64,000 bases of DNA, from assembly GCA_963702845.1 (NCBI GenBank), contig OY969763.1, positions 1,664,001-1,728,000 on the forward strand. Reading direction: 5' to 3'. Every line of letters starts with the position of its first letter. The stretch's first letter is position 1. The notes beneath the pieces are model-generated. The model made no database searches, had not been told where the DNA came from, and saw only the letters and a program-made list of their open reading frames with translations. Positions 22,090-63,399 of this stretch are shown piece after piece. A program made the position numbers and the translations under genes. Source of the DNA: an uncultured Verrucomicrobiae bacterium (GTDB taxonomy: Bacteria > Verrucomicrobiota > Verrucomicrobiia > Limisphaerales > Palsa-1400).

Positions 22090-22152
22090 TATTTAACAGG
22101 GGTTTGGTGGATTTGTCTTGAGTCCTAACGGTTTTCCTAACAGAATGCCGTT

Positions 22153-23529
22153 ATGACAGCCGAGACGCGTACTCCAACTCCGCAAGTGTCAGCGCAAACC
22201 GATGCTGCGCCCTCTTTTCCGCTTCTGATTCAGACCGGCTCCGTTGTGGTGAAGATTTATAAGGTCACCAATAAGGGGCGGGATTCTTACACGATTTCTT
22301 ACATCACCCACGGCAAGCGGAAGCTCAAAATGTTTGCTGATTTGGAGAAGGCTATCGCCGCAGCGGAAGGCGTTGGCGACGCAATGGGTCGCGGCGAATT
22401 GGAGGTGCTCAATCTCCGCAGCAAGGAGCTGCTGAATTACCGGCTGGCGATGGATGCGCTCAAGCCGACCGGCGTTTCTCTTGAAGTTGCGGCGACGCAA
22501 TTCGCCCAGGCATTTGCAAAGCTGAACGGCAAAGCGACGCTGCTGGAGGCCGCTGAGTTTTATGTGAAGCGGAACCCGAACCAATCTCCAAAGTTGGTTT
22601 CGAAAGTGATAACGGATTTGCTGGAGGCCAAAGAAGCTGACGGAATGAGCGACGTTTATACCAAAGACCTGCGCAGCCGTTTGAAACGCGTTGGCAACTA
22701 TTTCAAGATGCCGATCGGGATGCTCACGGCGGCTGAGATTGAAAAGTTTTTGCGCGGACTGAAAACCGAGGGTGAATCGCCAAAGCCACTCACGGGCCGT
22801 TCACGAAACAATTACCGCCGCGCGATCGCGACGCTGCTCTATTTTGCTGAGAGTCGCGGGGACATCGTTAAGGGCACTGTTGATGTGGAGTCTATCGCAG
22901 TCGCGAAGCAGAATGACGGTGACATTGAGATTTTTACAGCGGATGAGCTCACGCGCATCTTTGCTACGGCTAGGCCGGTGCTGATCCCGTTCCTCGCCAT
23001 TGGCGCGTTTGCCGGACTACGCAGTGCGGAGATTGAGCGGCTGGATTGGTCCGAGGTTCGCATCGACGACGGGTTTATCGAGGTGAAGGCGAGCAAGGCG
23101 AAAACTGCGAGCCGACGTTTGGTGCCGATTTCCGAAAATTTGAAGTTGTGGCTTACGGATCACAAGAAGCCAAATGGCGCGGTCGTTCCATTTGCAAATA
23201 TGTCGAAACAACTTCTCTGGCTGGCGGAGGACGTGCACAAGGCCTGGCAAACGGAAAAGCCGGCGGGCGAGTTCAAGTGGAAGCATAATGCCCTACGGCA
23301 TTCGTTTATCAGCTACCGTGTGGCAACGGTGCAGAACGTGGCGCAGGTGGCGCTGGAAGCTGGTAACTCGCCAAAGATGGTGTTCTCGAACTACCGCGAG
23401 ATTGTCCGCCCCATAGATGCCGAGCGGTGGTTTGCGATCACGCCGGAAAGCGTCAGCGGCTTCAAAGTGAAAGTGGAACGTGAGCGAGCGGCGAAGATTG
23501 TGGCGCATCCGGTGGCGATGGCAGCGTAA
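22153..23529 (+). CDS. Tyrosine recombinase/phage integrase
   Basis: GLRSAEI (R), KAKT (K), HNALRHSF (HxxRH-type), NYRE (Y). Confidence 0.92.
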   Translation: MTAETRTPTPQVSAQTDAAPSFPLLIQTGSVVVKIYKVTNKGRDSYTISYITHGKRKLKMFADLEKAIAAAEGVGDAMGRGELEVLNLRSKELLNYRLAMDALKPTGVSLEVAATQFAQAFAKLNGKATLLEAAEFYVKRNPNQSPKLVSKVITDLLEAKEADGMSDVYTKDLRSRLKRVGNYFKMPIGMLTAAEIEKFLRGLKTEGESPKPLTGRSRNNYRRAIATLLYFAESRGDIVKGTVDVESIAVAKQNDGDIEIFTADELTRIFATARPVLIPFLAIGAFAGLRSAEIERLDWSEVRIDDGFIEVKASKAKTASRRLVPISENLKLWLTDHKKPNGAVVPFANMSKQLLWLAEDVHKAWQTEKPAGEFKWKHNALRHSFISYRVATVQNVAQVALEAGNSPKMVFSNYREIVRPIDAERWFAITPESVSGFKVKVERERAAKIVAHPVAMAA

Positions 23530-24287: not shown

Positions 24288-25257
24288 TTATGCCTTTCTG
24301 GGCATAAATTGTGCCGAATTAAATATCTCTGCATTCAGCACCTCAAGTATATTCCCACTCTTTTTATTTGCAACTAATTCGATGTCGTTCGGAAGTCCCA
24401 TATTAGCAAACACTAAAACGGTGTCAAAGTAGTCAAAATACCCTCTGAGATGCTCAATGAAACCACTATGTGACTCAGGAAGCGCCTTAAAATGCGGGAA
24501 TCGGCGTGACTGCTTGGCACGTTCCATGGCTTGCCGGATAGCTTTATCCAACGGTGTCAGTATAGCGACCATCGTGAGTTCATAGCCGTGTCTCTTTGCC
24601 AGGTCGATGCGCTGCATAGTCTCGCCGTGGCTGGACATCGACGAATCCAAGATGAATGATTTTTCCGCCTCGATCAGGTCAGACACGACCTCTCTGGTAA
24701 GCTCGACGCACTCTTTCTGAACGGTCCAACTGGCACGACCGTCGGCGACCGCTTTAATTAAGCTGAATTCCGGGATCCAGCTGTTTAAAGATATCGGCGC
24801 CCACCATATTCTTTTTTTCGAGCGGTAGCTTTTCATTCTTTGCAAGGTAGTTGACTGCAGTTGTTTTTCCACTCCCATAGCCGCCGCCAGTGAACACGAG
24901 TTGTGGCTTGCCTGGGAGTTTTATTGCCGGGTTGCTTGCGATGCCCTTAATTGTTTTGCGAAAGCTGTCGCGAGTAATGGATGTTTGCCCAGGAATCAGG
25001 CCAGCTTCAATCAAGTTGAATAACTGTGAATCGAATAGGTGACTATAGGAACATAAGTCTACCGTCGGCTTGTAGCGAGTTTCCGTGAGGATCGGATCTT
25101 CGGGCGAGATGATTTCTGGACGCGAGATTTTGCCTGGTTCGTATTTTGTATCCCACCACCAATCCCAAAATTCGTACGTTTGATCAATATTGTCGACTAA
25201 TGTTGCAAAGTCGAATTTCTCACCATCTTTTAATTTCGATAAAATTGGCAGATTCAT
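24288..25257 (-). pseudogene. Zeta-toxin-like P-loop kinase split by a frameshift near 24778
   Basis: GGGYGSGKTT and ADIFKQL in 24754-25257 continue as IPEF..FILDSS..GYELTMVAI in 24288-24878. Confidence 0.7.
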
Positions 25258-34134: not shown

Positions 34135-35304
34135 TTGGGGATGAAAATGATAAAAAAGCTACAGATTGGTTCGGTTCAACGCGCAGATTCACTGTTCTCG
34201 GACATGGGCGTGGGGAGTCGAACAAACGAAACAAAACAAACGGTGCGGCTGGATGTCGGTAGAGCAGAGAAGGCGTTGCTGCGGCGTGCACGCAAACAGG
34301 ATGCGGAGCTGGAGCCGGAGCGGGTGCGGCGCGGGCCGCTGGAGCGGATGTTCAAGATTCACCAGGTGATTGCCGATGGCAGATGCGTTAACGCGATGCA
34401 GTTGGCGGCGGAGCTTGAGATCGGGCACAAAACGATTTGTCGGGACATTGATTACATGCGCGATCATTACGCGCTGCCGATCGAATATGATGCGGTGCGG
34501 CACGGGTATTATTATTCGAAGCAGGTGAATGGATTTCCCGGTGCGTCGGCTCTTACGGAGAAGGAGATGTTTGCATGGTTGGTGGCGAACAAAGCGATTG
34601 AGCAGTATCGCGGCACGCCGTTCCATCCGCTGTTGGCGACTGCGTTCAAGAAGATGTTGGCGCAGTTGGATAGCAAGGAGCGGTTTTCAGTTGAGGATTT
34701 TGCAGAGGCGTTGTCGTTTCGGCCGTTTGCGCCGGAGGACGCGGATCTGGAATTGTTCGAGATGGTGACGCGGGCGCGTCGGGAACGGAAGGTTTTGGAG
34801 TTTGTTTATCGGAACGCAGGCGAGAAGGATGCGATCGTGCGGCGGGTGCATCCGTATCATGTGATGTGTTCTGATAATCGGTGGTATTTCCTGGGACATG
34901 ATGAGTTGCGTGCGGATATTCGGACTTTCGCGCTGGCGCGCATGGGGAAGGCGCAGGTTTTAGCTGAGCGGTTCACGCGACCGAATAGATTCGATGCCGC
35001 AAACTATTTTCGCGACAGCCTCGGGATGATGAAGGGTGACGGTGATTATGAGGTGGTGATTGATTTCGACGCGTTTGCAACGGACCAGTTGCGCGGCCGG
35101 AAATGGCATTCAAGTCAGGAGATTACGGAAATGCCGGGCGGCGGATGTAGGCTGCGCATGCGATTGAGCGGGTTGGAAGAGGTCGAGCGATGGGTTTTGA
35201 GTTGGGGGATACGTGCGACAGTCGTGGGTCCGTCGGTGCTGATTGAGCGGATTGGAGAGATGGTTAGGCAATTAGCGTCGCGGTACGTATCGGAGGAACA
35301 TTGA
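34135..35304 (+). CDS. HTH-WYL-WCX transcriptional regulator (start uncertain)
   Basis: LAAELEIGHKTICRDIDYMRD HTH; RRVHPY, NRWYFLG, RTFALARM; WVLSWG..VVGP. Confidence 0.9.
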   Translation: MGMKMIKKLQIGSVQRADSLFSDMGVGSRTNETKQTVRLDVGRAEKALLRRARKQDAELEPERVRRGPLERMFKIHQVIADGRCVNAMQLAAELEIGHKTICRDIDYMRDHYALPIEYDAVRHGYYYSKQVNGFPGASALTEKEMFAWLVANKAIEQYRGTPFHPLLATAFKKMLAQLDSKERFSVEDFAEALSFRPFAPEDADLELFEMVTRARRERKVLEFVYRNAGEKDAIVRRVHPYHVMCSDNRWYFLGHDELRADIRTFALARMGKAQVLAERFTRPNRFDAANYFRDSLGMMKGDGDYEVVIDFDAFATDQLRGRKWHSSQEITEMPGGGCRLRMRLSGLEEVERWVLSWGIRATVVGPSVLIERIGEMVRQLASRYVSEEH

Positions 35305-35418: not shown

Positions 35419-36003
35419 CTACCTTGATATTGAAATCCGGCCGCCTTCGTAAACATGGTGCTCTATGTTATGAGGAGGGAGCGCCCCCTCGAAGTCCGCC
35501 TCTTCTCGCTCAAATTGCGGCCTAGCCAAGTCGATGACGTATTTGTAGCGTCGCTCAAGGAAGGCCGCCTCGATGGTAAGTTTGTCACCGTCAACGCTCG
35601 CAACCCGCTCGAACCAGTTTGTCTCAGTGGCTCCAATGTTAGAACCGATATGGCTGTCATGAGCCGGGAAATCCTGGACCGTTCTCGTCGCGGTGTTCGC
35701 CAGGTGAACCATTGCCTGCCCACCGTCAAAATCCTTCCCCGTGACGAACAAAATCAAATGCTTGTTGGTAATCGCCAAATAGCAAGGATCAAGCCCCCTG
35801 ACATCTTTGAAATCGCGCCCCCAAATGGTCAGCACCTCAGTATCGGTAGAACCATGGACGTTGAATAGCTGGATGGTGCTGTGCTCGGTGATCTGAACGT
35901 GGTCATCGCGATACCGCTGGCGTGTGGAATGGGAGCAGCCGAACAACGTCACAGAAAGCGCCGCAGCTACGGTCGCTAGCAAATATCGAGGCGCGATGAT
36001 CAT
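35419..36003 (-). CDS. Cassette gene: hypothetical lipoprotein
   Basis: LFGC lipobox; bounded by GTTCGGC and GCCGAAC. Confidence 0.7.
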   Translation of the reverse strand: MIIAPRYLLATVAAALSVTLFGCSHSTRQRYRDDHVQITEHSTIQLFNVHGSTDTEVLTIWGRDFKDVRGLDPCYLAITNKHLILFVTGKDFDGGQAMVHLANTATRTVQDFPAHDSHIGSNIGATETNWFERVASVDGDKLTIEAAFLERRYKYVIDLARPQFEREEADFEGALPPHNIEHHVYEGGRISISR

Positions 36004-36009
36004 CTCGTT

Positions 36010-36072
36010 GCCGAACTATGATTATGCGACGGGGTGCAGCTATAATTTTGATATCCGAACGGTTGGTTCATA
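36010..36072 (-). other. attI-like site, type A
   Basis: TATGAAC-N5-GTTCGGATATCAAAATT..GTCGCATAATCATA-GTTCGGC. Confidence 0.7.
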
Positions 36073-36102
36073 TTGGTTGAGGAGACCTGGTTAGGCGACA
36101 TA

Positions 36103-36660
36103 TCAGTACACCAAGTTTGCGCCAAAACGGGGAATCTTCCCGTTCTTAACTTCATCTCTCCATCGGTCCAGTTCGACGTTGCCATCCTTCCAAAAGTTCC
36201 GACAGAGTTCAAAATATTCTAGAACTACGTCTCGCTCACCTTTATCGAGAAGGTCCTTGGCGAGAGTCATGTTCGGGCCAAAGCTGTCCATGGTCGGAGA
36301 ACCCGGGCTCTTTCCAGCCGCAAGTAAGTACTTTTTGGCTTCAGCTTTCTTACCGTCGCGCAATGCGAGGCGTCCAAGCACTAAATTTCCATCTTGGATA
36401 GCGTTTCCATAATTCCAGTCACTACGATAATTGGGAGCAGATGAAAGCAATTCTATCGCGTATTTGTTGGCATCTTCGAATTTCGCGTTGTTAAAGCTTT
36501 CTTTGGCAGCTTTATCCAACGCGTGGAATCTCTGTAGGTCCGTAGATGCCGAAGCCAGCTTCTTCGTCGCCGCATCGTATCTCTGTTGTGGTGTGGTCGC
36601 GGAACAGGCTCCGATGCCAATTAACAAGAAGCCCAAGAGGAATACTGTAAAGTATCGCAT
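36103..36660 (-). CDS. Cassette gene: TPR-like lipoprotein
   Basis: IGAC lipobox, helical repeats; bounded by GTTAGGC and GCCTAAC. Confidence 0.75.
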   Translation of the reverse strand: MRYFTVFLLGFLLIGIGACSATTPQQRYDAATKKLASASTDLQRFHALDKAAKESFNNAKFEDANKYAIELLSSAPNYRSDWNYGNAIQDGNLVLGRLALRDGKKAEAKKYLLAAGKSPGSPTMDSFGPNMTLAKDLLDKGERDVVLEYFELCRNFWKDGNVELDRWRDEVKNGKIPRFGANLVY

Positions 36661-36670
36661 AAGTGATGCC

Positions 36671-36733
36671 GCCTAACTATGAATATGCGACGGGGTGTCG
36701 CGGTAATTTTGATATACGAACGGCCGGTTCATA
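36671..36733 (-). other. attI-like site, type A
   Basis: 63-bp copy ending GTTAGGC; flank GGTGCAGACAAAAGCAAG shared with the 40841 copy. Confidence 0.7.
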
Positions 36734-36957
36734 CCTGATTTTCCGAATGATGTCGTAGGTGCAGACAAAAGCAAGCGGTGAGGGCGGTTCGAACTCTGGG
36801 CAGTGTTTTTTAGCTCCTTCCACGTTCGCTTATTGCCCCAAGCGATTGTGAATGATTTTTTTGGGGTGTCACCCCGTATGGCTGCGCGGTATTTTGTGGA
36901 GGGTGATTGTTGTCTTTGACAGAATATTGTCGGTAAGAATACCGTCCAACTTGTCAT

Positions 36958-39421: not shown

Positions 39422-39892
39422 TTACTCCTCAAGCGAAAAGGCCCCAAACCCACCGCCACAAGGGCCAAGGCCAAATCCAACCGCGCCTCCAACCGTCTGG
39501 TGCCGGCTCTGCGTCGCGCTGACGACGCATCCATCGCGCAAAACAAAGGCCACTTTTTCCCTCCCAAGCGGCAAAGCGATTGGAATCGGAACCAGAACAA
39601 CAGGCATAACTCCCTGCCATATGGGGCTGAACTTATAGGTCCAAATCTCCTCCGAACCGGCGGCTCCAACATGGCCGACGCTCGACGGTTTGCCCCAGTG
39701 GGACTCCAGCCAGTCCGAGGTGTAAACGACGGTGTTCGTCCCTTCTGCCATGATTCGCGGATAAAGACTTGGACAGGCGGTATCTGGAACCACAGGGTCG
39801 CGAACAGCCTCCGTGCGCGATTTCAGAACGCCGGCACCCACACACCCTTGCATAAGTACGCAAAGAGCCAAAAGCGGAACCAGATTTCTCAT
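39422..39892 (-). CDS. Cassette gene: lipoprotein
   Basis: MQGC lipobox; bounded by GTTGGCC / GGCCAAC. Confidence 0.7.
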   Translation of the reverse strand: MRNLVPLLALCVLMQGCVGAGVLKSRTEAVRDPVVPDTACPSLYPRIMAEGTNTVVYTSDWLESHWGKPSSVGHVGAAGSEEIWTYKFSPIWQGVMPVVLVPIPIALPLGREKVAFVLRDGCVVSATQSRHQTVGGAVGFGLGPCGGGFGAFSLEE

Positions 39893-39908
39893 CGCGACTG
39901 TTATACAT

Positions 39909-39971
39909 GGCCAACTATGATTTTGCGACGGGGTGTCGGTATTATTTTGATAGACGAACAGTCGGTTCATA
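39909..39971 (-). other. attI-like site, type A
   Basis: 63-bp copy ending GTTGGCC. Confidence 0.65.
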
Positions 39972-40002
39972 AGCGCGTTTGCTCGATGACTGGGAAATGG
40001 GA

Positions 40003-40482: not shown

Positions 40483-40830
40483 CGTGTGTTTCGATTGATC
40501 ATGACGGTCAATACACTGATCGCATACCCATCGACCATCGAGTTCGCATCCCGGCAATAAACCGTCGATGGCTTCGAGCTTCGTGCGGTCTGTCGCCCAG
40601 GCAGAACAATAGAAGCAACGTCGCGCATTGGTCCCGAGATCAGGTTTTTCCAAGTATCGGAAATTCGTGCACTGACGACTCCACTCGACTGACTCGGACG
40701 ACAGTGACTGCTGGATCGCTTGCTTCATTCGAGCAGCGATGCGGTCGCGCACCTCTCGCATTTCTGCGTCGTCGCGCGGTGCTTTCACGAGGATGCTCGT
40801 CGATATAAGGATGTCTTGATGCGCGCCCAT
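40477..40830 (-). CDS. Cassette gene: small protein with two CxxC pairs
   Basis: CFYC..CDQC; stop inside R''; bounded by GTTAGGT / ACCTAAC. Confidence 0.7.
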   Translation of the reverse strand: MGAHQDILISTSILVKAPRDDAEMREVRDRIAARMKQAIQQSLSSESVEWSRQCTNFRYLEKPDLGTNARRCFYCSAWATDRTKLEAIDGLLPGCELDGRWVCDQCIDRHDQSKHTT

Positions 40831-40840
40831 AGTACAGGTG

Positions 40841-40903
40841 ACCTAACAATGTTTATGCGACGGGGTGTCGCGGTCATTTTGATATACGAACAGTCGGTTC
40901 ATA
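40841..40903 (-). other. attI-like site, type A
   Basis: 63-bp copy ending GTTAGGT. Confidence 0.7.
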
Positions 40904-41059
40904 TCTGAGTTTCCAAAGGATGTCTCTGGTGCAGACAAAAGCAAGTGACAAGGGGAGCGGATTAGGGCAACGGTGAATCAGTTCACCGCGCGGTACGCGT
41001 CTACCAACAGTTATTGCGCTGTTGGCTTATCGCCTCCCCAACCTTACTGTGCTTTTACA

Positions 41060-50473: not shown

Positions 50474-51072
50474 GTCTGGACGTTTCGAAGCTGGAGAAGG
50501 TTGTCGATCTGGCGAACGGCATGAAGCGCGCGCGTTGTCCGGCCTGTGCTGAAACAGGCAGCGACAAAACCGGTGTGCATCTTCGCGTCTATCCCGATGG
50601 CCGATTCGGTTGCTGCGTGCACCCACAAGACAAGGAGCATCGGAAGCGAATCTTTGCCCTGGCCGGCGAGCGGACGACTGCGCAACGGCGCGGGATCGTC
50701 GTCAAGGTGGCGGCGGTCAAAATCAGTCAGCCGGTAAAGTTGCGAATTCTTGTGCAAGTTGGGCAGTCGTTTGCGGCGGACGCTTCGGACGCCTCTTTGC
50801 AAGTCGAAATGACTTCGGAAAATTGTCGGACGGCTCGGACGGGTGAAACGAAGTCCAACGGCGAAACTGTTGAAGAATCTCGGACGCTACGGACGGGTTC
50901 TCTTTACTCTTTTAACGGGGCAGAAAAAACAGAAGAAAATAATAGTAATACGCTAAAAGACTTTCGCCCCCCCGTCCGTAGCGTCCGAGAGTGTCAAACG
51001 GATGGAACTGTGGTGGACGAAACAGACGCCGAAATTTTAGAAAGGATGGAAAGCGATGCCTCTCCCTTTTGA
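50470..51072 (+). CDS. Zinc-finger protein whose 3' half carries repeat motifs
   Basis: RARCPAC..FGCC; coupled to primase. Confidence 0.6.
   Translation: MSLDVSKLEKVVDLANGMKRARCPACAETGSDKTGVHLRVYPDGRFGCCVHPQDKEHRKRIFALAGERTTAQRRGIVVKVAAVKISQPVKLRILVQVGQSFAADASDASLQVEMTSENCRTARTGETKSNGETVEESRTLRTGSLYSFNGAEKTEENNSNTLKDFRPPVRSVRECQTDGTVVDETDAEILERMESDASPF
50776..50990. repeat. Candidate replication origin: paired CGGACG iterons around an AT-rich core
   Basis: Pairs at 50776, 50826, 50880; perfect 20-bp inverted repeat 50878-50897 / 50971-50990. Confidence 0.7.
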
Positions 51073-51661
51073 ACAGCAACCCCGTGAGTCGGATAAAGCG
51101 TTTGCGGCGTTCAGTTTGTATCTGAGCGATGGTCCGCAACGGTCCGCCGAGTCGGTAGCAAAGAAGTTAGCAAAGAGTGCACACCTTGTGCGGAGGTGGG
51201 CGAGCAAGTTCGATTGGGTGGCGCGGGTGAAGGCGCATGCGGCGCATTTGGCGATTGTCGAACGGGAAGCGACGGAGGCTTTGACTCGCGGCAAGGCGGC
51301 GGAATGGGTCAGCCGACAAGAGGCGCATCGCGAGGAGGAATGGAAGATGCGCGGGGAGTTGATCGAGCTCGCGCGTGAGGCCATTGCGCGATGGAAGAAA
51401 GCGCCGCAACGGTGTGGCACGCTGGAAGGCATCGCGCGACTGCTGGATTTGGCGAGCAAGCTGGGGCGGTTGTCGTCGGGCATGGCGACGGATCGAACGG
51501 AAGTGAGCGGCGAACTGACGGCGACGCTGAAGCTCGAGTTCGTCCAGGCACTGGATGAGGTCTACGGGACGGCAGTGCCGTCGGCCATTCTGTCCCCTGC
51601 TCCCGCGATCGACGCCGAAGTTGTTACGGAACCGAAAGCGTTGCCGGAGGCGAAGAAATGA
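51056..51661 (+). CDS. Probable terminase small subunit
   Basis: ESDKAFAAFSLYL..HTH..RWASKFDW; coupled to large terminase. Confidence 0.65.
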   Translation: MPLPFEQQPRESDKAFAAFSLYLSDGPQRSAESVAKKLAKSAHLVRRWASKFDWVARVKAHAAHLAIVEREATEALTRGKAAEWVSRQEAHREEEWKMRGELIELAREAIARWKKAPQRCGTLEGIARLLDLASKLGRLSSGMATDRTEVSGELTATLKLEFVQALDEVYGTAVPSAILSPAPAIDAEVVTEPKALPEAKK

Positions 51662-53052
51662 GTTCGGTTAAGGCGTATCTGATGGATGGGCGCAAGGCTG
51701 GGTGTCCGCGCGACCAGATGGAGAATTTTCTGAGGGCAGAGATTCACCTGCAAGCGCGGCAGTTGGCGGCGTCAGCGGCCGCGCGGTTTTGTGACCGGCG
51801 AGACGGGCCGACGGCGATCGGCTACGGCGGTGCGCGTGGCGGCGGCAAGTCGCATTGGTTGCTCGCGCAAATGGGCGCTGACGACTGTCAACGCGTGCCT
51901 GGGCTGAAGTGTTTGCTTCTGCGCAAGGTCGGTAAGGCAAACGTGGAGCATTTCGAAGATCTACGGCAACGGCTGTTTTCAAAACTGCCGCATGAATTTT
52001 CGGCGTATCGAGGCGTGCTCACGTTCGCGAATGGTTCGCGCATCATCGCCGGGCACTTTCAAAACGAGAAGGACATCGACGCGTATCTCGGTCTCGAATA
52101 CGACGTGATTGGGATCGAAGAAGCGACGACGTTGTCGTCGCGAAAGTATCAGGACATTTCGACGTGCTGCCGCACGAGCAAGCCGAACTGGCGGCCGAGG
52201 ATTTATTCGACGACGAATCCCGGAGGCGTCGGGCATCAATGGTATAAGGCAAAATACATCGTTCCGTTTCGCGACGGAAAGGAAACGGAGACGCGATTCA
52301 TTGCGGCGCGCGTGGCGGACAATCGTTACAACAATCCTGAGTATGTGCGGGTTTTGGAAGGGCTGCCAGCATGGCAACGGCGGCTTTGGTTGGATGGCGA
52401 TTGGGATGTGGCGGCGGGACAGTTCTTCACGACGTTCCGGCGCGAGGTGCATGTCATTGACGATTTCGATGATAAGCGGGCGCGGGAATGGTTCTGTGCG
52501 CTGGATTATGGTTTTAACCATTACACGGTCGTTTATCTCGGCTGCACGGATGGCGACGGGAATATGTTCGTTGTGGATGAACATGCGGAACGGCTTTGGT
52601 TGCCGCAACGGCATGCACTTGCGATCAAGGCGATGGTGCAACGGCGGACAATCGGAAATCGCAAATTGGAGGTTTCAGATTTGAAACGGTTCGTCGCCGG
52701 CGCGGATGTGTTCGGTCGACAGAGCGACGGCACCACGGTCGCGGCGCAGTATGCGCGCGAAGGAATCACGCTGCGTTGTGCGAACACGGATCGTGTGAAT
52801 GGTTGGGCTGAGATTTTGCATCGTCTGGGGGATGCCGACGCGAAGATCAAGCCGACTCTTTTTATTCATCGGCGATGCGCGCGGCTGATTGATTGTCTGC
52901 CGGCGCTGCAACGCGATCCGAATCGGCCGGAGGATGTGATGAAGGTGGATGCGGATGAAGGAGTCGGAGGCGATGACACCGCCGATGCGTTGCGTTACCT
53001 GGTCGCGACGAAGTCGCGCGTGGTTGTTCAACGGAAGTTGAGGGGGCTCTGA
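51658..53052 (+). CDS. Phage terminase large subunit
   Basis: YGGARGGGKS, IGIEEA, TTNPGG, LDYG, DDTADALRY. Confidence 0.92.
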   Translation: MSSVKAYLMDGRKAGCPRDQMENFLRAEIHLQARQLAASAAARFCDRRDGPTAIGYGGARGGGKSHWLLAQMGADDCQRVPGLKCLLLRKVGKANVEHFEDLRQRLFSKLPHEFSAYRGVLTFANGSRIIAGHFQNEKDIDAYLGLEYDVIGIEEATTLSSRKYQDISTCCRTSKPNWRPRIYSTTNPGGVGHQWYKAKYIVPFRDGKETETRFIAARVADNRYNNPEYVRVLEGLPAWQRRLWLDGDWDVAAGQFFTTFRREVHVIDDFDDKRAREWFCALDYGFNHYTVVYLGCTDGDGNMFVVDEHAERLWLPQRHALAIKAMVQRRTIGNRKLEVSDLKRFVAGADVFGRQSDGTTVAAQYAREGITLRCANTDRVNGWAEILHRLGDADAKIKPTLFIHRRCARLIDCLPALQRDPNRPEDVMKVDADEGVGGDDTADALRYLVATKSRVVVQRKLRGL

Positions 53053-53086
53053 AGAAAAAACTGAAGACTGAGGGACTGAGGACGGA

Positions 53087-53143
53087 GCGGCGGCGGGCCA
53101 CTGACTCGTGGATTGTAAACGCAGTCCCGACTCCTAGTTAGCT
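53087..53143 (-). repeat. Partial attC site
   Basis: GCGGCGGCGGGCCACTGACTCG.GGATTGTAAACGCAG as at 63878; R'' AGCTAAC. Confidence 0.65.
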
Positions 53144-53416
53144 AACTTTGTCATGAAATTTATGGCGCACGATATGGATAATGCCGCACGACACCAAGCA
53201 AAGTGTCCATGCGAAACACAATCCGGATGCTCCAAGGCATACGTAAGCAAACCCATTTACTCGCCACTCGGCAGCACGCCGCTGAGCCTCGGTTCTTTCG
53301 ACGACCTTACCGTCAGGCGTAATATATCTTTTCGCGGGGGAGTATGGCGCAAGCGCCATGGTCGCAAAAAAGAACAGCCCGATCGAAAGAACCAACCATC
53401 TTAATGGGCGTTTCAT
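53138..53416 (-). CDS. Cassette gene: two-TM protein
   Basis: Stop inside R''; follows attI-like site. Confidence 0.65.
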   Translation of the reverse strand: MKRPLRWLVLSIGLFFFATMALAPYSPAKRYITPDGKVVERTEAQRRAAEWRVNGFAYVCLGASGLCFAWTLCLVSCGIIHIVRHKFHDKVS

Positions 53417-53428
53417 CGCGTTTTGTGT

Positions 53429-53480
53429 GGCTAGCGGTTAATATACGACGATTGTTCGCATAATTCTGATAGGCGGACAA
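53429..53480 (-). other. attI-like site, type B
   Basis: TTGTCCGCCTATCAGAATTATGCGAACAATCGTCGTATATTAACC-GCTAGCC. Confidence 0.55.
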
Positions 53481-53509
53481 GACTGTTGTGCTGAGGCAGG
53501 CGCGAAAGT

Positions 53510-53570
53510 GCGGAGTCCAGAGGTTGCAAATCTCTGGCGTGGATGCGAGCCTCACTGGCCCCTGGAGGCG
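53510..53570 (+). repeat. Repeat X copy 1 (copy 2 at 54206-54269)
   Basis: GCGGAGTCCAGAGGTTGCAAATCTCTGGCGTGGA..TGCGAGCC.CAC.GGCC.CTGGAGGCG. Confidence 0.85.
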
Positions 53571-53656
53571 GCGAAGATGATGTAGCGGATGCGTTGCGGT
53601 ATTTGGTCGCGACGAAGTCGCGGGTGGTGGTTCAACGGAAGTTGAGGGGGTTGTGA
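53564..53656 (+). pseudogene. Diverged duplicate of the terminase 3' end
   Basis: GGGEDDVADALRYLVATKSRVVVQRKLRGL* versus GVGGDDTADALRYLVATKSRVVVQRKLRGL*. Confidence 0.9.
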
Positions 53657-53707
53657 CCGACAAGGTTGAAGGATGAAGGCCAAAGGATGAAGTTTTGGAA
53701 TCGAGGC

Positions 53708-53758
53708 TTGTTCTCGTATCGAAAATGTGCGAACGGTTGTCAGATATAAACGTTAGGC
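53708..53758 (+). other. attI-like site, type B, on + strand
   Basis: TTGTTCTCGTATCGAAAATGTGCGAACGGTTGTCAGATATAAAC-GTTAGGC, ending 12 bp before an ATG. Confidence 0.6.
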
Positions 53759-53770
53759 GTCTGCGACACC

Positions 53771-54142
53771 ATGAAAACATACGGAACACTACTCGCGATC
53801 TGCTGCGCCTCGGTGCTCACTCTGGTATCTGGTTGTGGGCAGAAGCCGAAAGATGCACTAGTGATGCAGCAGCAACAGGCCCAAGAAAGTATTGCGCAGT
53901 TTCGGCGAACTTTTGCAGAAAAGGATGCCACCGTCAAAGTGGGCACTACACTATCAAACGCTATAGTAGTCTTTGGGAAACCTATTGCCTTCACCAATGA
54001 TGACAGATCGGTGGAGGCGCACTTCGCGTTCATGCCTTACGGTTTATCCTATGTAAAATACGGCACTTTGACCAATGGGTTTACACTGCTTGTCTCAAAC
54101 GGCATTATCGTGCGAAAGGCTTATTCGTTCACAACGGACTGA
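53771..54142 (+). CDS. Cassette-type gene: lipoprotein
   Basis: VSGC lipobox. Confidence 0.7.
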   Translation: MKTYGTLLAICCASVLTLVSGCGQKPKDALVMQQQQAQESIAQFRRTFAEKDATVKVGTTLSNAIVVFGKPIAFTNDDRSVEAHFAFMPYGLSYVKYGTLTNGFTLLVSNGIIVRKAYSFTTD

Positions 54143-54324
54143 GTGCCGACTGATTGTGCACTACAGCAAATGACGGCGGGTTGTCGTTGAGTTTGGGTCG
54201 TTAAGGCGGAGTCCAGAGGTTGCAAATCTCTGGCGTGGAGGGTGCGAGCCGCACCGGCCACTGGAGGCGACGTGAGTCTCCAAAACGGATGGCTCGCGCC
54301 ACGGCGGACGCGAGGCAAAATGGG

Positions 54325-54714
54325 CTATCCGCGACTGGCCGCGCAGGTTTGCGGCTTGGCGTCGCGATCGGCGGTGTAGATGAGGGGTTGGCCGCAGGCG
54401 TGGCAGGTCTTCCAATAGGTGCCGGCGTCGCGATCTTTCTGACTGCGGCAATACCAACGGATGCCGCATTGGGCGTGTTCGTCTGGACTGCGGTATTTGT
54501 GCGCGCTGGCACGCTGGAAGCGGCGGTGGTTCTTGGCGATTTCTTCCTCTGCGTTGCGTTTCTCGCGCTGGATGTTGACGAGGATCTTCGCGGCCTGCTT
54601 GGCTTCGGTGCGAGCCGCACGTGCCTGCTGTTCGGCGGCGCGTTGGGCTTCGCACTTCGCGGCTTCGGCCGCAACGGCGACGGCTTCGAACGGCATGAGG
54701 GATTGTTGAGTCAT
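54325..54714 (-). CDS. Hypothetical protein with coiled coil and C-x5-C..CxxC
   Basis: CGIRWYC..CHACG. Confidence 0.6.
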   Translation of the reverse strand: MTQQSLMPFEAVAVAAEAAKCEAQRAAEQQARAARTEAKQAAKILVNIQREKRNAEEEIAKNHRRFQRASAHKYRSPDEHAQCGIRWYCRSQKDRDAGTYWKTCHACGQPLIYTADRDAKPQTCAASRG

Positions 54715-54759
54715 ACGCTGGAATGGCTCGCGCCCTGGGCGGACGCGAGCCAGGTGGGA

Positions 54760-55071
54760 CTATGCTGCTGCGGCTTCTACTTCGATGGGCGGATGTGCCT
54801 CATTAATGAGCTCAAGCTTTCGCTCGGCAGACATGACACGCGCGAGAGAGGAAGCGCGGCGGAAGTCGTAGACACCGTAAACGGTGTTGATTGGCTGGCC
54901 GTTATCGTCTCCGACATAGACTGACCAACGCTGCACGGCTGTGCCGGTTTTGTCTTTGGTTTGTTCCGGTCCGCGAAAGAAGACTGCTCTGAATGTCTGA
55001 CTACCTTGCTGTGCGATCCGGTTCATGAGCCCTGGCGTTTCTGTGTTTTGATTTTGTGTATTTGTTTTCAT
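54760..55071 (-). CDS. Hypothetical protein
   Basis: A-rich leader before ATG 55071; co-oriented with 54325-54714. Confidence 0.6.
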   Translation of the reverse strand: MKTNTQNQNTETPGLMNRIAQQGSQTFRAVFFRGPEQTKDKTGTAVQRWSVYVGDDNGQPINTVYGVYDFRRASSLARVMSAERKLELINEAHPPIEVEAAAA

Positions 55072-55361
55072 GTTCTTTTTTTTGACTGCTCTGCTGTGCG
55101 CTCTCGGACTGTCGCCCTTCATCCGAAAGAGGCCGCGCGGGCAGGCGGGCAGTGGAAGTAGTCTTCAGAAGGCGCCACGTTGTCCCCTGACGAAAAGCGG
55201 CCCGGTGAGGGCGATGGTCGAGTGGCTAGCAGAGGGTTAAAAGGAACCAGACGGTGTCTGGACTCACTTTTTCTGGACTTAATTAGGGCTCAGGGGAATG
55301 CCAAGCGGCAACTGAGCGTGGCAACAAATCGCAGAAAGAGTGCGCAGCGAGGGCGGATTTC

Positions 55362-55643
55362 TTATCGTCCGGAAGCGATGGTGATCGCAGAGGCGACAAT
55401 CGCCGTGACGGCGAAGGCGAGAAAACACCATCCAATTACTCTAATCCGAGGGCCAACCAGCATTTGTTTGGGTTCGTGTTTGAGGCTGAACCAAAAGCAG
55501 ATGGGACCAAGCAAAGCAGGAACGAGTCTGTACCATCCGCCGACTGAAGTACAAACGAGGAAAAGGACAATTAGGACTAAGCTAAGAAGCGTCCATCGCT
55601 TGTTGGTCAGAGTCACAGGAACAGAATATCGTAACTGTTTCAA
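55362..55643 (-). CDS. Small three-TM protein
   Basis: Hydrophobic ORF between fold-back elements; start uncertain. Confidence 0.45.
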   Translation of the reverse strand: MKQLRYSVPVTLTNKRWTLLSLVLIVLFLVCTSVGGWYRLVPALLGPICFWFSLKHEPKQMLVGPRIRVIGWCFLAFAVTAIVASAITIASGR

Positions 55644-55688
55644 AGGTGAAAGCGTGAAAGCGGAGCGAGCGACTGCAGCTGAGTCTTA

Positions 55689-56073
55689 GCGACCCCGCCT
55701 GTTTGCGTTCACGCTGCGGAGTGAGGGCGTGGCGTGAAGAATGCAAAACGGATTGGCGCGCGCACTGCAGGCCGATGGCGGGGAAGATCGGCCGGCCGCA
55801 TGTGAGCGTGCCAAGCCGTTTTCCCTGCGTGGCATAAGGCAATATTGTGCGACAAATCCGGTTCGCATCAGTGGGTCTCGCGGGTCCCGCTGGTGCGATG
55901 CGTTATTTCGCAACGGATTTTCGTCACAATGTTTCTTATGTCTTAGCAGTGGTTCGCAAGGCAGACGCCCAGACGCGCAGGTGCGAGCCGCACCGGCCAA
56001 GCCGAGTATCGTAGCGTCTGCCGGTTTCTTCATGCCACGCTAGAACGGAGCTTAGCAATTCTCGCGGGGTCGC
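55689..56073 (+). other. Large multibranch fold-back element (structured RNA or ssDNA signal)
   Basis: At least six nested helices with G-T wobbles on the + strand. Confidence 0.75.
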
Positions 56074-56546
56074 ATCGTGCGGTCTCGCGGTGGTCGCGAT
56101 CTCTGACGTGTGCGCGGAAGTCGAGGATGTCGCCGGCGTTCGATGGGTGTTAGCACACGGCCACTTGGGCGAACGGTAAGGCGATACCGCAGGCTTTTGC
56201 GCAGAGGTCAGACCAAATTTGGGAGCGTGCGCATGACTGCGACGCGGCGGAGGCCAGCGAGCTTGCGAGCGTTTCCGAAGCTAGTTGCAGTGATGCGTGA
56301 GCTCTTGGGAAATGCTTTGCCAGTCTCCATAAATTTGAAACGTCGGAACGGAGCGGCAACGGAAGAGCTGATCGGCGGAGTTGTTCGTCGATTGGCTCTG
56401 GAGTGTTAGCGGAGTGGAGCGTTTTTAATTTGTGGAGTCTGGCTCTTCGGGGCTGCGCAAGGGTGAGGACAACGACGGTGCTTGCACGATGGAGCGACAT
56501 CGGCAGCGACAGTCGAGTCGATGGCGTCACTCTTGTGCGGCAGGGG

Positions 56547-57104
56547 CTACTTGTGAAAGGCAGGGTTTTTTAGTTTGATTCGGCCAAGAACATTGGACCG
56601 GGCCATATTGTTCTCATTGTAAAATGACATTTCCAATGTCTCTTCGTTCGTTGGGCATTCTGGCCAGGTGATGGCAACGATGCCCGGATGGTTCAGCCAT
56701 CGCCAAGCATGCAATTTCCAAGCGGCCATTATTGTGTAGGGCTCCCCGGGATCCTGGACGGCACACCATGTCCGGCGAGAGCGATCGGGCTCGTATGGAT
56801 TTTCGCTGAACCAAAACACTGCCTCACCCGGGCCCGTATGGAATGGAATCGTATTCGTTTGCATGAAGAGTCGTGGGAAAACTTTCGAGCTCAAGAGGCT
56901 CAGCTTTTGCAAGGCGCGCTTTGCTGGGTTTTGGTTCAGCCACATTTGACTGCGGACGTCGTATGTCGCCTCTATTAGTTTGAGCGTCGGTCCGTTAGGG
57001 ATCGTGATCGTTACCTGGTTAAGTTGAGTTAACCACAACAGAGCAGCGATTCCCACGGCGAGGGCGCAAATAGCCACCAGAGTAAATTGGGTTTTGCGCC
57101 GCAT
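56547..57104 (-). CDS. Hypothetical membrane-anchored protein
   Basis: N-terminal TM; 185 aa. Confidence 0.6.
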   Translation of the reverse strand: MRRKTQFTLVAICALAVGIAALLWLTQLNQVTITIPNGPTLKLIEATYDVRSQMWLNQNPAKRALQKLSLLSSKVFPRLFMQTNTIPFHTGPGEAVFWFSENPYEPDRSRRTWCAVQDPGEPYTIMAAWKLHAWRWLNHPGIVAITWPECPTNEETLEMSFYNENNMARSNVLGRIKLKNPAFHK

Positions 57105-57718
57105 GAAAGGAGGTTGGCAGAACAGGGAAAGAGTTCAAGCCGGTGACTAGGTTTAGTCGGAGAACTGAGATTTGAAACGGCTAAGCAGTGAATCGCCTTA
57201 GCGATTCGACTGCGTGCCAGAGTAACCCAGCGTCGGGGTTGGTGGTGTCTTTGGGCGTCTTTGTCTTTGGGGCGAGCCGGTAGGCGAGGCGGTTGTCTTT
57301 ACGGGTTCGCGTTGGCGCGCGTTCCCTAGCGGGGGAGGGGGCGAAGTGTTGCTAGCTATTCCGAGCGCGCCTGCCCCCTCCCCCAGCAGCCCGCGTCGAC
57401 CGCGATTAGCGGAACTGCGACGTGGTCTGGGGGAGGGGGCGCGGGGGCGGGAGCGGGGAGCGCGCGAGGGGGGCAATGCGCTGGTGCGCGAGGGGGAAAA
57501 TGGGCGGGTGCCGCCGGCGTGCGGCGGGGAAATCAAGGCGGCGAGAGACGCTGGATTATATGAGCAAAGCGAACCGATGTTGTCTTTGGTGGCGCTGTCG
57601 GACGGTTGAGGCGTTTGGTTTGGGTGGAGGGCTAACTGATGCCGAAGGTTCGTACCAGCTTGAGCGACTGGCGGCTGCGCTGCTCTGTGCGCGCGAGTCG
57701 CGCCTCCCTATGTGGAAA

Positions 57719-57752
57719 GCAGCGCAGATGACAGGCGCGCAACTGACTTTGT
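57719..57752. repeat. Identical 34-bp repeat (also 59670-59703, 62296-62329)
   Basis: GCAGCGCAGATGACAGGCGCGCAACTGACTTTGT. Confidence 0.9.
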
Positions 57753-57812
57753 CTTTGTGGGTCGTCGAGCTGCCAATAAGCGTTCGAATCACCGAGAGCG
57801 GACGCGAACGAT

Positions 57813-58495: not shown

Positions 58496-58909
58496 TCATT
58501 GTGGTGGCATCCTCTCAAGGATCTCGACACTCTTAACAATCCGACAAGCATCGTCAGAGTATGAAATTCTTGCTCGGTAATTCTGATAGCCACAACGTCG
58601 CGACGAGCCTTGCAGCCGATAAATCTTACCGCGTGGCTCATCGGATGCCTGCAAAGGTCCGACAATGTTGGAAAACATGATGTGACCGCAATTGTCGCCA
58701 TGCGCTTTCTCGTAATCCCTCATCGCCCGCTTGTAAAATTCCACGTTCTTCTGAAACTGCCTCTCCGCATCGTCCAAACTCGCAATCGCCTGTCCTGCCT
58801 CTGAATTGCGGGAAACTCCAATCTTGGTGACGCCCGACTGGCAGCCAGTGATAACAACTGCGGCGGCGCAAAATGAAAGTAAGATGAACTTGTGGTGCGT
58901 GTTTGACAT
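58496..58909 (-). CDS. Cassette gene: lipoprotein
   Basis: ITGC lipobox; ATG 2 bp after GTTAGGC. Confidence 0.7.
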   Translation of the reverse strand: MSNTHHKFILLSFCAAAVVITGCQSGVTKIGVSRNSEAGQAIASLDDAERQFQKNVEFYKRAMRDYEKAHGDNCGHIMFSNIVGPLQASDEPRGKIYRLQGSSRRCGYQNYRARISYSDDACRIVKSVEILERMPPQ

Positions 58910-58911
58910 CG

Positions 58912-59161
58912 GCCTAACTCTGATTATGCGACACGCTGTCGCGGTCATTTTGATATACGAACGGTTGGTTCATATTGGTTGAGGAGATTATTGTTATGCT
59001 GGCGCTGCGAATCAAGCGCAACACAACGCGCTCGCGAGCACGGCGACGACATGCCGGAGATCCGCGATTGGAAGTGGAGTGCGTAGCGGCAGACCAACGA
59101 GGCGCTATTTATCAATTTAGCTCGGGAGGTTTCACACAGGCTCGCGACTTGTTAGGCGTCA
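58912..59161 (-). repeat. About 250-bp composite spacer ending in a type A attI-like site (58912-58974)
   Basis: Closely similar to 63131-63380; begins TGACGCCTAACAAGTCGCGAGCCTGTGTGAAACC. Confidence 0.85.
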
Positions 59162-59566
59162 TTGGAATTGGCCCGGTCCAAGCAGATAACGATAAAAGCC
59201 TGGATACTCACTGCGCAGCAGCGGAATGACGACAGCCGGAGCGTGAGTCCCACAATTAAACCTCTTCCTTTTCACGTAAACAATGGCGGAACGTGAATCT
59301 GACGAATCCAACTCAATGCGACCGCCCGAGTCGCGCATGTCCTGACTCAAATGCTCTGGTTCGTAGTCCAACATCACGAGCACTCTGCCGTCAGCCAACG
59401 TAAGGCGATTGCTCGACACAGACGTAATGGCAATCGAATTGGTGAGCGGATCGTTGTTGAGCGGGATGGGACGATAAAAACTGACGCCGACCGTGACTGC
59501 GAGGAAGGTGAAGAGAGTTACGATACCGACTGCGCCCCAAACCGTAACTCTGACGATGTGTTTCAT
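59159..59566 (-). CDS. Cassette gene: membrane-anchored protein
   Basis: N-terminal TM; stop abuts GCCTAAC. Confidence 0.65.
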   Translation of the reverse strand: MKHIVRVTVWGAVGIVTLFTFLAVTVGVSFYRPIPLNNDPLTNSIAITSVSSNRLTLADGRVLVMLDYEPEHLSQDMRDSGGRIELDSSDSRSAIVYVKRKRFNCGTHAPAVVIPLLRSEYPGFYRYLLGPGQFQ

Positions 59567-60973: not shown

Positions 60974-61318
60974 CTGTTTCTTGAACTCATGGCTGCTCGC
61001 TCGCGACACTGCCTCATATAGTTCACCGACCGTAAACTCTCTAACTCGGCCAGAACAAAGGCCCAAGAAATCCAAACCTTCCGGGTGAAACAAAAACTCG
61101 TCCGGTGCCAAGCCGAAGGTATCTCGGAATCCGCGCTCCTCAGAGGATAGCACTACATCGAACCGTGACTGGACCTCCTTTAAGATATCCACGCCGTCAT
61201 CCCCGGTAACACCCAAGTCCTTCTCGAACTTTGTCGATGGTACGATCGGAGTCTTGTCCGACAAGCCAGTGAACTCGCGGACGAACTTGACGAACTTTTC
61301 AAAGCTTGGTGCGCCCAT
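60926..61318 (-). CDS. Cassette gene: DUF1493/ACP-like protein
   Basis: TKFEKDLGVTGDDG..FHPEG..FTVGEL; reads into attC. Confidence 0.65.
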   Translation of the reverse strand: MGAPSFEKFVKFVREFTGLSDKTPIVPSTKFEKDLGVTGDDGVDILKEVQSRFDVVLSSEERGFRDTFGLAPDEFLFHPEGLDFLGLCSGRVREFTVGELYEAVSRASSHEFKKQVKPAGLQARPGSGVC

Positions 61319-61335
61319 CGATTCCTTTTCCTTCG

Positions 61336-61508
61336 GTATAACTATGATTATGCGACGAGGTGTCGCGGTAATTTTGATATACGAACGGTTGGTTCATATT
61401 GGTTGAGGAGACTATTGTTCTGCTGCCGCTGGGAATCAAGTTTAACACAACGCGCTCGCGAGCACGGCGACGACATGCCGGAGATCCGCGATTGGAAATG
61501 GAGCGGGT
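61336..61508 (-). repeat. Truncated composite spacer with type A attI-like site (61336-61398)
   Basis: Matches 63131 onward for about 170 bp. Confidence 0.85.
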
Positions 61509-61516
61509 GACCGCTT

Positions 61517-62203
61517 TTATGGGTAGCGCTTGAACACCGGATTGGTAGTCATGCCAAACTGGTTTATGATCGGGGGAATTTTTCCGCCGACGTGTTCCTG
61601 CGAGGCGATTTCATCCACCACAATATTTTGCACCGACGTGTTGGTATTCCCTTTTAGACATTCAAACACTTCCTTACGCTGTGTGTCTCCGCGAATCGAG
61701 AGGTAGATGATCGGTGCTATGTTATCTCGTTGGGCTGGCGAGTTTATCACACGTATCCACACGAAAGGATACTCGTCGTTAACTATTCTCTCAAAGGGAG
61801 ATGGCCCCATCCAGGCTCTTGGCACCAGAATATCCTTTTCGTGCAACCACGTTGGATGGTTCAGAAGCTCAGCAATGTTGCCCAGCGTCATTCCACTGTG
61901 GAAGTGACGAGCAAACATCTGTAGAACTGCGCGACTACGATGATCCACACTATATTGAGGATTGTTAGCGATGTCGTTCCAAAACTTCGGCGGCTCGTTT
62001 GTCAAACCAGAGTCCCGAAGCAATCCCAAAGCCGAAAGCAAGTTATTCGTACTCGCATGGACGTCTGCGATCTTCTTTAGAGCGGTGTGAAATTGCCGTT
62101 CCTGAATATGGGAGTTGGTGGTCGATTGTGCTTCTTGCGGTGTAACGCACCCGCCGAGCAGCAGCAATGCACCCGATAGCAGAACCTTAAGCGCGACTTT
62201 CAT
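61517..62203 (-). CDS. Cassette-type gene: lipoprotein
   Basis: LGGC lipobox. Confidence 0.7.
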   Translation of the reverse strand: MKVALKVLLSGALLLLGGCVTPQEAQSTTNSHIQERQFHTALKKIADVHASTNNLLSALGLLRDSGLTNEPPKFWNDIANNPQYSVDHRSRAVLQMFARHFHSGMTLGNIAELLNHPTWLHEKDILVPRAWMGPSPFERIVNDEYPFVWIRVINSPAQRDNIAPIIYLSIRGDTQRKEVFECLKGNTNTSVQNIVVDEIASQEHVGGKIPPIINQFGMTTNPVFKRYP

Positions 62204-62918: not shown

Positions 62919-63119
62919 ATCGTTTTTCTTTCGTCCAAGCAGTGCATGAACAATGGTGAAAATTATCCAGGCACACGCAATAGTAATGGCTGGTCCGTAA
63001 AACATTTCGGATGTCGAAAGGCCATTAACCAAATCCAGAGAGCGCAACAGTGCGAGCATCCCGACGCCAACAGCGTAAAGAACAAGCGAAAGCGGTAAAG
63101 CGATCTTCAAAAGTTTCAT
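62913..63119 (-). CDS. Cassette gene: two-TM protein
   Basis: Stop inside R''. Confidence 0.65.
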   Translation of the reverse strand: MKLLKIALPLSLVLYAVGVGMLALLRSLDLVNGLSTSEMFYGPAITIACAWIIFTIVHALLGRKKNDV

Positions 63120-63130
63120 ACGCTCACGAG

Positions 63131-63380
63131 GGCTAACAATGATTATGCGACGGGGTGTCGCGGTAATTTTGATATACGAACGGTTGGTTCATATTGGTTG
63201 AGCAGACTATTGTTCTGCTTCCGCTGCGAATCAAGCGTAACAGAACGCGCTCGCGAGCACGGCGACGACATGCCGGAGATCCGCGATTGGAAGTGGAGCG
63301 GGTAGCTCCACACGAACAAGGCGCAATCTATCAATTTAGCTCGGGAGGTTTCACACAGGCTCGCGACTTGTTAGGCGTCA
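63131..63380 (-). repeat. About 250-bp composite spacer ending in a type A attI-like site (63131-63193)
   Basis: Second full copy of 58912-59161. Confidence 0.85.
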
Positions 63381-63399
63381 AAGCACCAGACATAAGTTC

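Follow-up and report, generated by a model that had tools for sequence, protein, structure and literature searches.

Introduction

To our knowledge, few RNAs of bacteria or phages are as large and complex as the element described here. RNase P, tmRNA, group II introns, OLE, GOLLD and ROOL have each opened new biology. GOLLD and ROOL are large ornate RNAs, often found in prophages and often neighbouring tRNAs. The pRNA of phage phi29, a structured RNA of ~120-174 nt, belongs to the packaging machinery and works with the phi29-type ATPase. At the DNA level, the known single-stranded DNA (ssDNA) promoters and ssi sites are small, with one or three hairpins in 70-330 nt. GOLLD and ROOL are reported to form homo-oligomeric RNA-only complexes (PMC12286853), and cabRNA is reported as a structured staphylococcal phage RNA that arises at the terminase genes (PMC10686824).

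The window analysed here is a stretch of 64,000 nucleotides from an uncultured Verrucomicrobiae bacterium (contig OY969763.1, positions 1,664,001 to 1,728,000). Within a prophage, it carries a conserved non-coding block of ~0.86-0.9 kb at 55689-~56546, of which 55689-56073 is the 5' core. Like GOLLD and ROOL, the element is a several-hundred-nucleotide, multi-domain, covariation-supported structure carried by phages and prophages. It differs from both in showing no sequence or structure match by cmscan and in its much longer and more regular helices, and no tRNA is found in the 64-kb window. The likeness to cabRNA is that of a structured phage RNA at terminase genes, whereas cabRNA is transcribed within terminase coding genes and defined by its function, the activation of a CBASS cyclase (PMC10686824); by comparison the element is intergenic, larger and from another phylum. 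With phi29 pRNA the likeness is one of position only, the element lying between terminase and portal genes, and Rfam reveals no similarity. Frpo, ssi and sso signals are likewise strand-specific non-coding folds, flanked on one side by genes that have the folded strand as their template, but their context and promoter features are not those of the element. By the tests run, none of GOLLD, ROOL and cabRNA is related to it.

Results

Structure of the core domain

The + strand of 55689-56073 folds with a minimum free energy (MFE) of -209.3 kcal/mol, compared with a mean of -158.2 (sd 6.5) for 100 dinucleotide shuffles, none of which folds as well (z -7.88). The predicted fold contains 142 base pairs, 12 of them G-U. 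The - strand reaches -172.7 kcal/mol (z -6.0), so that both strands exceed their shuffles and the + strand is ~37 kcal/mol more stable than the - strand. With DNA energy parameters the values are -119.8 (z -9.6) for the + strand and -103.4 (z -7.0) for the - strand. Since both strands also beat the shuffles under DNA parameters, folding energies confirm the structure and do not, by themselves, discriminate a folded RNA from folded ssDNA.

The large fold-back proposed here by the first-pass annotation is thus real, and every pairing it had listed, including two small hairpins, lies within the + strand MFE fold. Its extent of 385 nt describes the structured core correctly and falls short of the whole, as the conserved structured block runs on to ~56546 and has a leader hairpin upstream. 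The helices and neighbouring features are collected in Table 1.

Table 1. Features of the element and its surroundings, in positions of the window.
Feature	Position	Strand	Evidence or remark
Small terminase subunit gene (terS)	51056-51661	+	Upstream anchor
Large terminase subunit gene (terL)	51658-53052	+	Upstream anchor
Two small genes, 129 aa and 120 aa	54325-55122	-	No family match; between terL and element
Leader hairpin, 6-bp stem, G-rich loop	55288-55317	+	Copies c2 and c4 and homologue G002 have it no more than ~25 nt before P1
370-bp insertion with 93-aa minus-strand ORF (55362-55643)	55319-55688		Only in the window copy; splits leader from P1
5' core domain	55689-56073	+	Fold, helix coordinates, covariation on 34 homologues
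P1, closing helix, 10 bp	55689-98/56064-73	+	MFE fold, covariation
P2	55711-18/56046-53	+	Helix coordinates
P3	55726-44/56023-41	+	MFE fold
P4, hairpin	55746-68/55798-822	+	MFE fold
P5, long hairpin with inner arms and apical hairpin	55823-50/55924-51	+	MFE fold
P6, optional hairpin	55960-68/56014-22	+	MFE fold
20-nt mini-palindrome	55980-55999		Small repeated element, in the P6 loop
3' extension, hairpin chain	56074-56546	+	Conserved in five own-genome copies and in G002 and G003; covariation
Ha, hairpin	56085-99	+	3' extension
Hb, hairpin	56102-22/56192-212	+	3' extension
Hc, hairpin	56223-48/56280-305	+	3' extension
Hd, hairpin	56319-44/56419-43	+	3' extension
He, hairpin	56452-76/56517-41	+	3' extension
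185-aa ORF	56547-57104	-	No family match; after element, in copies c1 and c2 only
G-rich, ORF-poor conserved block	57190-57650	+	Directly abuts He in copy c5; five prophage copies

Across the family the core measures 310-415 nt and is closed by P1. Its internal loops hold conserved unpaired, near-invariant nucleotides, and the element contains helices of 20-36 bp with few mismatches. A search for pseudoknots, in the form of extra covarying column pairs in the 34-sequence alignment, returned noise arising from the two sub-families.

Covariation, folded strand and coding potential

The structure is selectively maintained. Covariation was assessed on a MAFFT alignment of 34 cores (alignment A2) that had not been fitted to any structure. 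RNAalifold predicted 60 pairs in this alignment, 44 of them with compensatory changes. Over the 59 pairs that were counted, 96.7% of 1989 cells can pair, compared with 77.6% in shuffled alignments and 30-46% in controls whose partners were slid 1-3 columns. Both sides have changed in 43 of the 59 pairs, as against 28.8 in shuffles (0 of 500 reach 43) and 17-20 in slid controls, and the covariation score is 0.509, as against 0.161 for shuffles and at most 0.099 for slid controls. Because the aligned sequences are related, the shuffle statistics overstate independence; the slid controls keep the relatedness and are fairer, and their outcome is just as clear. For P1, ten or more sequence versions are seen, all of which stay complementary. 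The alignment of homologues thus yields compensatory changes well above both controls, the generic mark of a structured RNA.

Comparable support extends beyond the core. At full length, seven sequences give 260 pairs, 74 with double changes (slid 15-20), with good support in the 3' hairpins, and in the 3' extension of the second sub-family, 91.6% of the cells of its 184 pairs can pair and double changes number 62 (slid 12-18).

The + strand is the folded strand. In the 1989 cells of the 59 pairs, G-T and T-G combinations occur 139 times and A-C and C-A combinations, which would be the wobbles of the other strand, 9 times; several G-U pairs are themselves conserved in the 34-core alignment. The + strand-specific wobbles first noticed in the single sequence therefore hold across homologues. 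The element is also non-coding, in agreement with the earlier observation that no credible ORF covers it. Four ORFs of 99-126 aa overlap it in the window, without a Pfam or PHROG match, and none is conserved: no frame stays open in more than 2 of the 7 aligned copies, and each is interrupted or frame-shifted in at least 5 of the 6 other copies.

Extension, leader and local insertions

Downstream of the core, members of the family carry 0.5-0.9 kb of long hairpins, giving a family total of 0.9-1.3 kb. The 3' half of the window copy folds at -230.5 kcal/mol on the + strand (z -7.2) and at -156.0 kcal/mol on the - strand (z -3.8), and covariation in the 3' extension involves helices 19, 25, 30 and 33. 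In the second sub-family the 3' extension has a different sequence and includes a tandem array of ~38-nt hairpin units. About 3.5-4 such units lie at 12165-12316 of locus L034, and the array occupies the same place in L029, L072, L098, L100, L108 and L110; it bears a superficial resemblance to the repeat arrays of type III antitoxin RNAs.

A short leader hairpin stands ahead of the core in most cases. Upstream of the core, 19 loci of the larger sub-family share a covarying leader hairpin with a conserved GGGGAYGG loop, a CGAGCA motif and four G-tracts, which in L045, L046 and L048 begins right at the terL stop codon. The window lineage carries a different small hairpin in the equivalent place, within a segment (55189-55318) that is common to other own-genome copies and adjoins P1 in c2, c4 and the G002 homologue. 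As this leader lies upstream of the core, the transcript, if one exists, probably starts at least 60-80 nt before P1.

The window copy has been altered locally. With its leader split off by the 370-bp insertion and an ORF following its 3' end, it may be impaired. The mini-palindrome in the P6 loop has 100% identical copies at 54241-54260 and at three other sites of the genome, is missing from copy c2, and is inserted in the element leaders of L040 and L093. Its behaviour across these sites, five in this genome and the leaders in two others, is that of a very small mobile hairpin. A 6-bp GC-rich hairpin with T-runs on both strands, resembling a bidirectional terminator, stands at 55247-55261 between the 120-aa minus-strand gene and the element leader.

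The G-rich block further downstream folds at -230 (z -3.4) on the + strand and -150.8 (z -1.3) on the - strand, and contains long G5AG5/C5TC5 helices for which alternative pairings are possible. It may belong to the same transcript. Its profile gave no match in 159 terL loci and it was seen in its own genome only, so it was left out of the family.

Prophage setting and copies in the same genome

The genome of 6.03 Mb contains five full copies of the element, the window copy included, and one fragment of 105 nt. Two of the copies beyond the window are full-length matches of 89% and 87% identity, and two own-genome copies keep both ends with a different middle. All five full copies lie between terL and portal of related prophages, and the fragmentary sixth is found beside a terL remnant. 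The five prophages, identified by tblastn searches using L046 portal, scaffold and capsid proteins, share the order terS-terL-[variable stretch with element]-portal-scaffold-capsid. They occupy ~134-145, 1712-1738 (window), 2237-2251, 4281-4300 and 4828-4841 kb of the genome, each with a variable island of 4-15 kb between terL and portal.

In the window prophage the portal gene follows terL by 15.4 kb, beyond the window end, and small minus-strand genes fill the space between the two. The + strand genes upstream encode a RusA-like resolvase, an exonuclease, a Dda/PIF1-type helicase and a prim-pol/D5 primase-helicase. A more compact arrangement is seen in L046, where the element starts 58 nt after the terL stop codon and the portal, scaffold and major head protein genes follow 3.6 kb later.

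Relatives and distribution

Relatives were collected through terL, using the best 80 of 139 loci from species-representative genomes and 79 of 188 from IMG/VR; nearly all of them are labelled as MAGs of Verrucomicrobia (subdivision 3, Pedosphaera, Limisphaerales and the like). With the 34 aligned cores as a profile, the element was detected at 46 of 80 terL loci from genomes and 9 of 79 from viruses, and many of the terL loci without it either end too soon after terL or encode terminases only 28-35% identical. All 58 profile matches lie on the terL strand, downstream of terL. A first profile search gave 40 loci, at which the 5' domain begins between 51 nt and ~4 kb after the terL stop codon. 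This variable distance and the intervening antisense genes mean that simple co-transcription with terL cannot apply to every locus. The shortest spacing, 51-58 nt, is found in L045, L046 and L048.

A second survey was independent of terL. A covariance model of one P3 strand plus P4 (R1) was run on evenly drawn genomes and found the element in 22 of 151 genomes of the order sample at E <= 1e-4, while a phylum-wide sample of equal size gave 4 of 151 at E <= 1e-3, with weak matches in three; both counts include the window's genome. The loci found in this way and not chosen through terL number 27, in 21 other genomes, and every one of them contains the whole core. Within their 1.5-kb flanks, a co-oriented terL lies upstream in 6, divergent small genes in 17 and neither in 4, so that 23 of the 27 have terL or divergent small genes within 1.5 kb upstream. 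A 15-mer scan of IMG/VR gave at least 119 loci; among the matches listed, six were true by profile search. In the samples searched, the family is confined to one order of Verrucomicrobia.

Comparison with known RNA families

A cmscan of the whole window against Rfam 15 (4227 families, among them GOLLD, ROOL, OLE, HEARO, group I and II introns, RNase P and tmRNA) returned only the tmRNA at 21738-22089. When 55300-56600 was searched with E values up to 10, two chance-level matches appeared, one scoring 16.4 bits (threshold 56) and the other 13.6 bits (threshold 36); no covariance model reaches its gathering threshold on the element. Eight homologous loci gave nothing in Rfam 15 except one tRNA, ~10 kb upstream of the element in L034, and positions 9300-11300 of L046 gave sub-threshold matches to miRNA precursors on both strands, as generic long hairpins do. 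No description of this RNA was found in the literature searched. A 2023 catalogue that lists 10,006 candidate RNAs of viruses (PMC10690425) names neither Verrucomicrobia nor portal in its text passages, and six of its supplementary files contain none of six IMG/VR sample numbers belonging to element-bearing contigs; a prior listing there is possible.

Small neighbouring genes on the opposite strand

At other loci, the position held in the window by the 129-aa and 120-aa genes is occupied by a gene for a ~140-aa protein and a DUF6573 gene (Pfam E 1e-21 and 2e-19), also on the opposite strand and to the left of the element. The ~140-aa protein and the two window proteins have no match in Pfam, PHROG or NCBIfam, the neighbouring small proteins fall only in viral hypothetical clusters of the Atlas, and no mention of DUF6573 was found in the literature searched. 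The small-gene pair is present where the element does not directly follow terL. In 34 of 39 loci the small minus-strand genes start to the left of P1, at a median of 259 nt; in 3 of 39 they lie on the other side and in 2 of 39 on both sides. The first-pass annotation had pointed out that the adjacent minus-strand genes of the window are templated by the folded + strand, and this arrangement proves to be general. Two readings suit it: a divergent promoter region that also serves an RNA gene, and a leftward ssDNA promoter.

Discussion

Interpretation and competing explanations

The element is likely to represent a new family of large structured non-coding RNA of tailed prophages of this Verrucomicrobia order, transcribed from the late strand and acting in trans in the lytic programme, as an analogue of GOLLD and ROOL. 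We infer an RNA because the fold beats shuffles, its pairs covary, the wobble bias singles out one strand, the element is non-coding and lies on the terL strand, and Rfam holds no match. Certain features point the other way. A search for sequencing runs containing the sequence listed eight, all of DNA or unknown type and sharing 5-7% of its words, and no RNA run. Helices of 20-36 bp are longer than usual in known ornate RNAs and would be substrates of RNase III, the fold is equally significant with DNA parameters, and a scan of 53000-57800 found no consensus promoter and no clean intrinsic terminator at the edges of the element.

The DNA-parameter fold bears on the alternative left standing by the first-pass annotation, which had offered a non-coding RNA or an ssDNA signal. 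In the latter case the + strand, transiently single-stranded during rolling-circle or recombination-dependent replication, would fold into an Frpo-, ssi- or sso-like promoter or priming site directed toward the minus-strand genes on the left. The strand-specific wobble asymmetry, the DNA-parameter fold (z -9.6) and the long, nearly perfect stems would all suit such a signal, as would the phage's prim-pol/D5-type primase-helicase and exonuclease. As in Frpo, genes next to the fold are templated by the folded strand: the small minus-strand genes in the window, and the ~140-aa and DUF6573 genes at 34 of 39 loci (median 259 nt left of P1). The setting speaks against it: Frpo belongs to a conjugative leading region near oriT with anti-defence, ssb and psiB genes, whereas the element is surrounded by phage genes, its carrier, which encodes terminase, portal and capsid, belongs to the tailed dsDNA prophages, and the ORFs scanned include no relaxase or transfer genes. 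The fold also lacks, on either strand, the -35/-10 hexamers that Frpo presents in its stem. The consensus scan of 53000-57800 gave three promoter-like sites, none of them in 55689-56546, which is weak evidence as the consensus used may not be the host's. In 3 to 5 loci, moreover, the small genes are found beyond the element and directed toward it, and a multi-domain build of ~1 kb with invariant loop nucleotides far exceeds the known ssDNA signals. An ssDNA signal is accordingly an unlikely explanation that fits the phage context poorly, and of the two original possibilities the non-coding RNA is favoured by covariation, the lack of a conserved ORF and the lack of an Rfam match.

An RNA could also act in cis, as a module of the late mRNA for processing, stability or anti-termination, by providing RNase III sites, by protecting the 3' end of terS-terL, or by a put-like crossing of the antisense cargo island toward the portal and head genes. 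Such a role would agree with the strand and position of the element within the late gene order, with its start 51-58 nt after the terL stop codon in three loci, with the chains of long hairpins and with a variable island full of opposite-strand genes. We nevertheless assign it a low probability. Known processing sites and put RNAs need far less than 0.9-1.3 kb, and a conserved multi-helix junction goes far beyond that need. Antisense genes often intervene between terL and the element, and together with the terminator-like hairpin before the window copy they favour a separate transcription unit. A role in head assembly or DNA packaging, in which the element would be an RNA component made with terminase and portal, a second independent packaging RNA or a self-assembling scaffold, appears quite improbable; there the core would dock on the motor or the portal, with the variable hairpin chain acting in oligomerisation or as a spacer. 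Most doubtful of all is a DNA-level repeat without RNA function, whether a MITE-like palindrome or a site of recombination, packaging (pac/cos) or replication origin. The terminal inverted repeats of 9-19 bp, the several copies per genome, the small palindromes inserted into the element and the adjoining packaging genes recall such repeats. The ends, however, differ between lineages yet stay complementary, unlike ends recognised by a transposase; conserved terminal repeats, target-site duplication and dispersed copies, the marks of MITEs, are not seen, with no target duplication at the edges and all copies syntenic in prophages (5 of 5 full copies, and the fragment beside a terL remnant); and a 139:9 excess of G-T over A-C would be meaningless for duplex DNA.

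Proposed role and significance

As a trans-acting RNA, the element would be read from the strand of the late genes (terS-terL ... portal), starting either ~50 nt after the terL stop codon or within the region shared with the divergent small-gene pair, and would act as a folded RNA in the lytic (late) programme. The conserved core may form the recognition unit for a partner, either a protein or the RNA itself, and the variable hairpin chain may provide a stabilising, nuclease-processed scaffold. The element would then be a functional analogue of GOLLD and ROOL, and not a cis regulator of one gene.

The element is well defined, with a covarying core of 310-415 nt, a fixed place in the phage between packaging and head genes, and multiple copies in single genomes. 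It offers a concrete target for structural work by cryo-EM and chemical probing and for the study of large RNA roles in phages, in a host order that belongs to a poorly studied phylum.

Further features of the prophage

The tmRNA gene is directly followed by an ORF with a sub-threshold match to tyrosine integrases (24.9 bits, cut-off 27.1 bits), so the window prophage probably sits at ssrA. The left arm also carries an ORF for a zeta-toxin-like kinase and a WYL/WCX regulator; the regions listed for this arm, tmRNA gene and integrase-like ORF included, are 21738-23529, 24288-24878 and 34135-35304.

A conserved repeat of ~65 nt, in which a 5-bp palindrome separates a -35-like from a -10-like box, has ~30 copies in the genome, clustered in the variable regions of prophages. 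In the window it occurs at 35990-36100, 36650-36790, 39890-39990, 40820-40960, 58880-59170, 61310-61530 and 63100-63390, just upstream of many small minus-strand cargo genes. Integron attC sites were considered for the repeats before cargo genes and dropped, as the repeats resemble a promoter/operator. The ~65-nt repeat looks like a shared promoter/operator that may define a regulon of prophage cargo genes.
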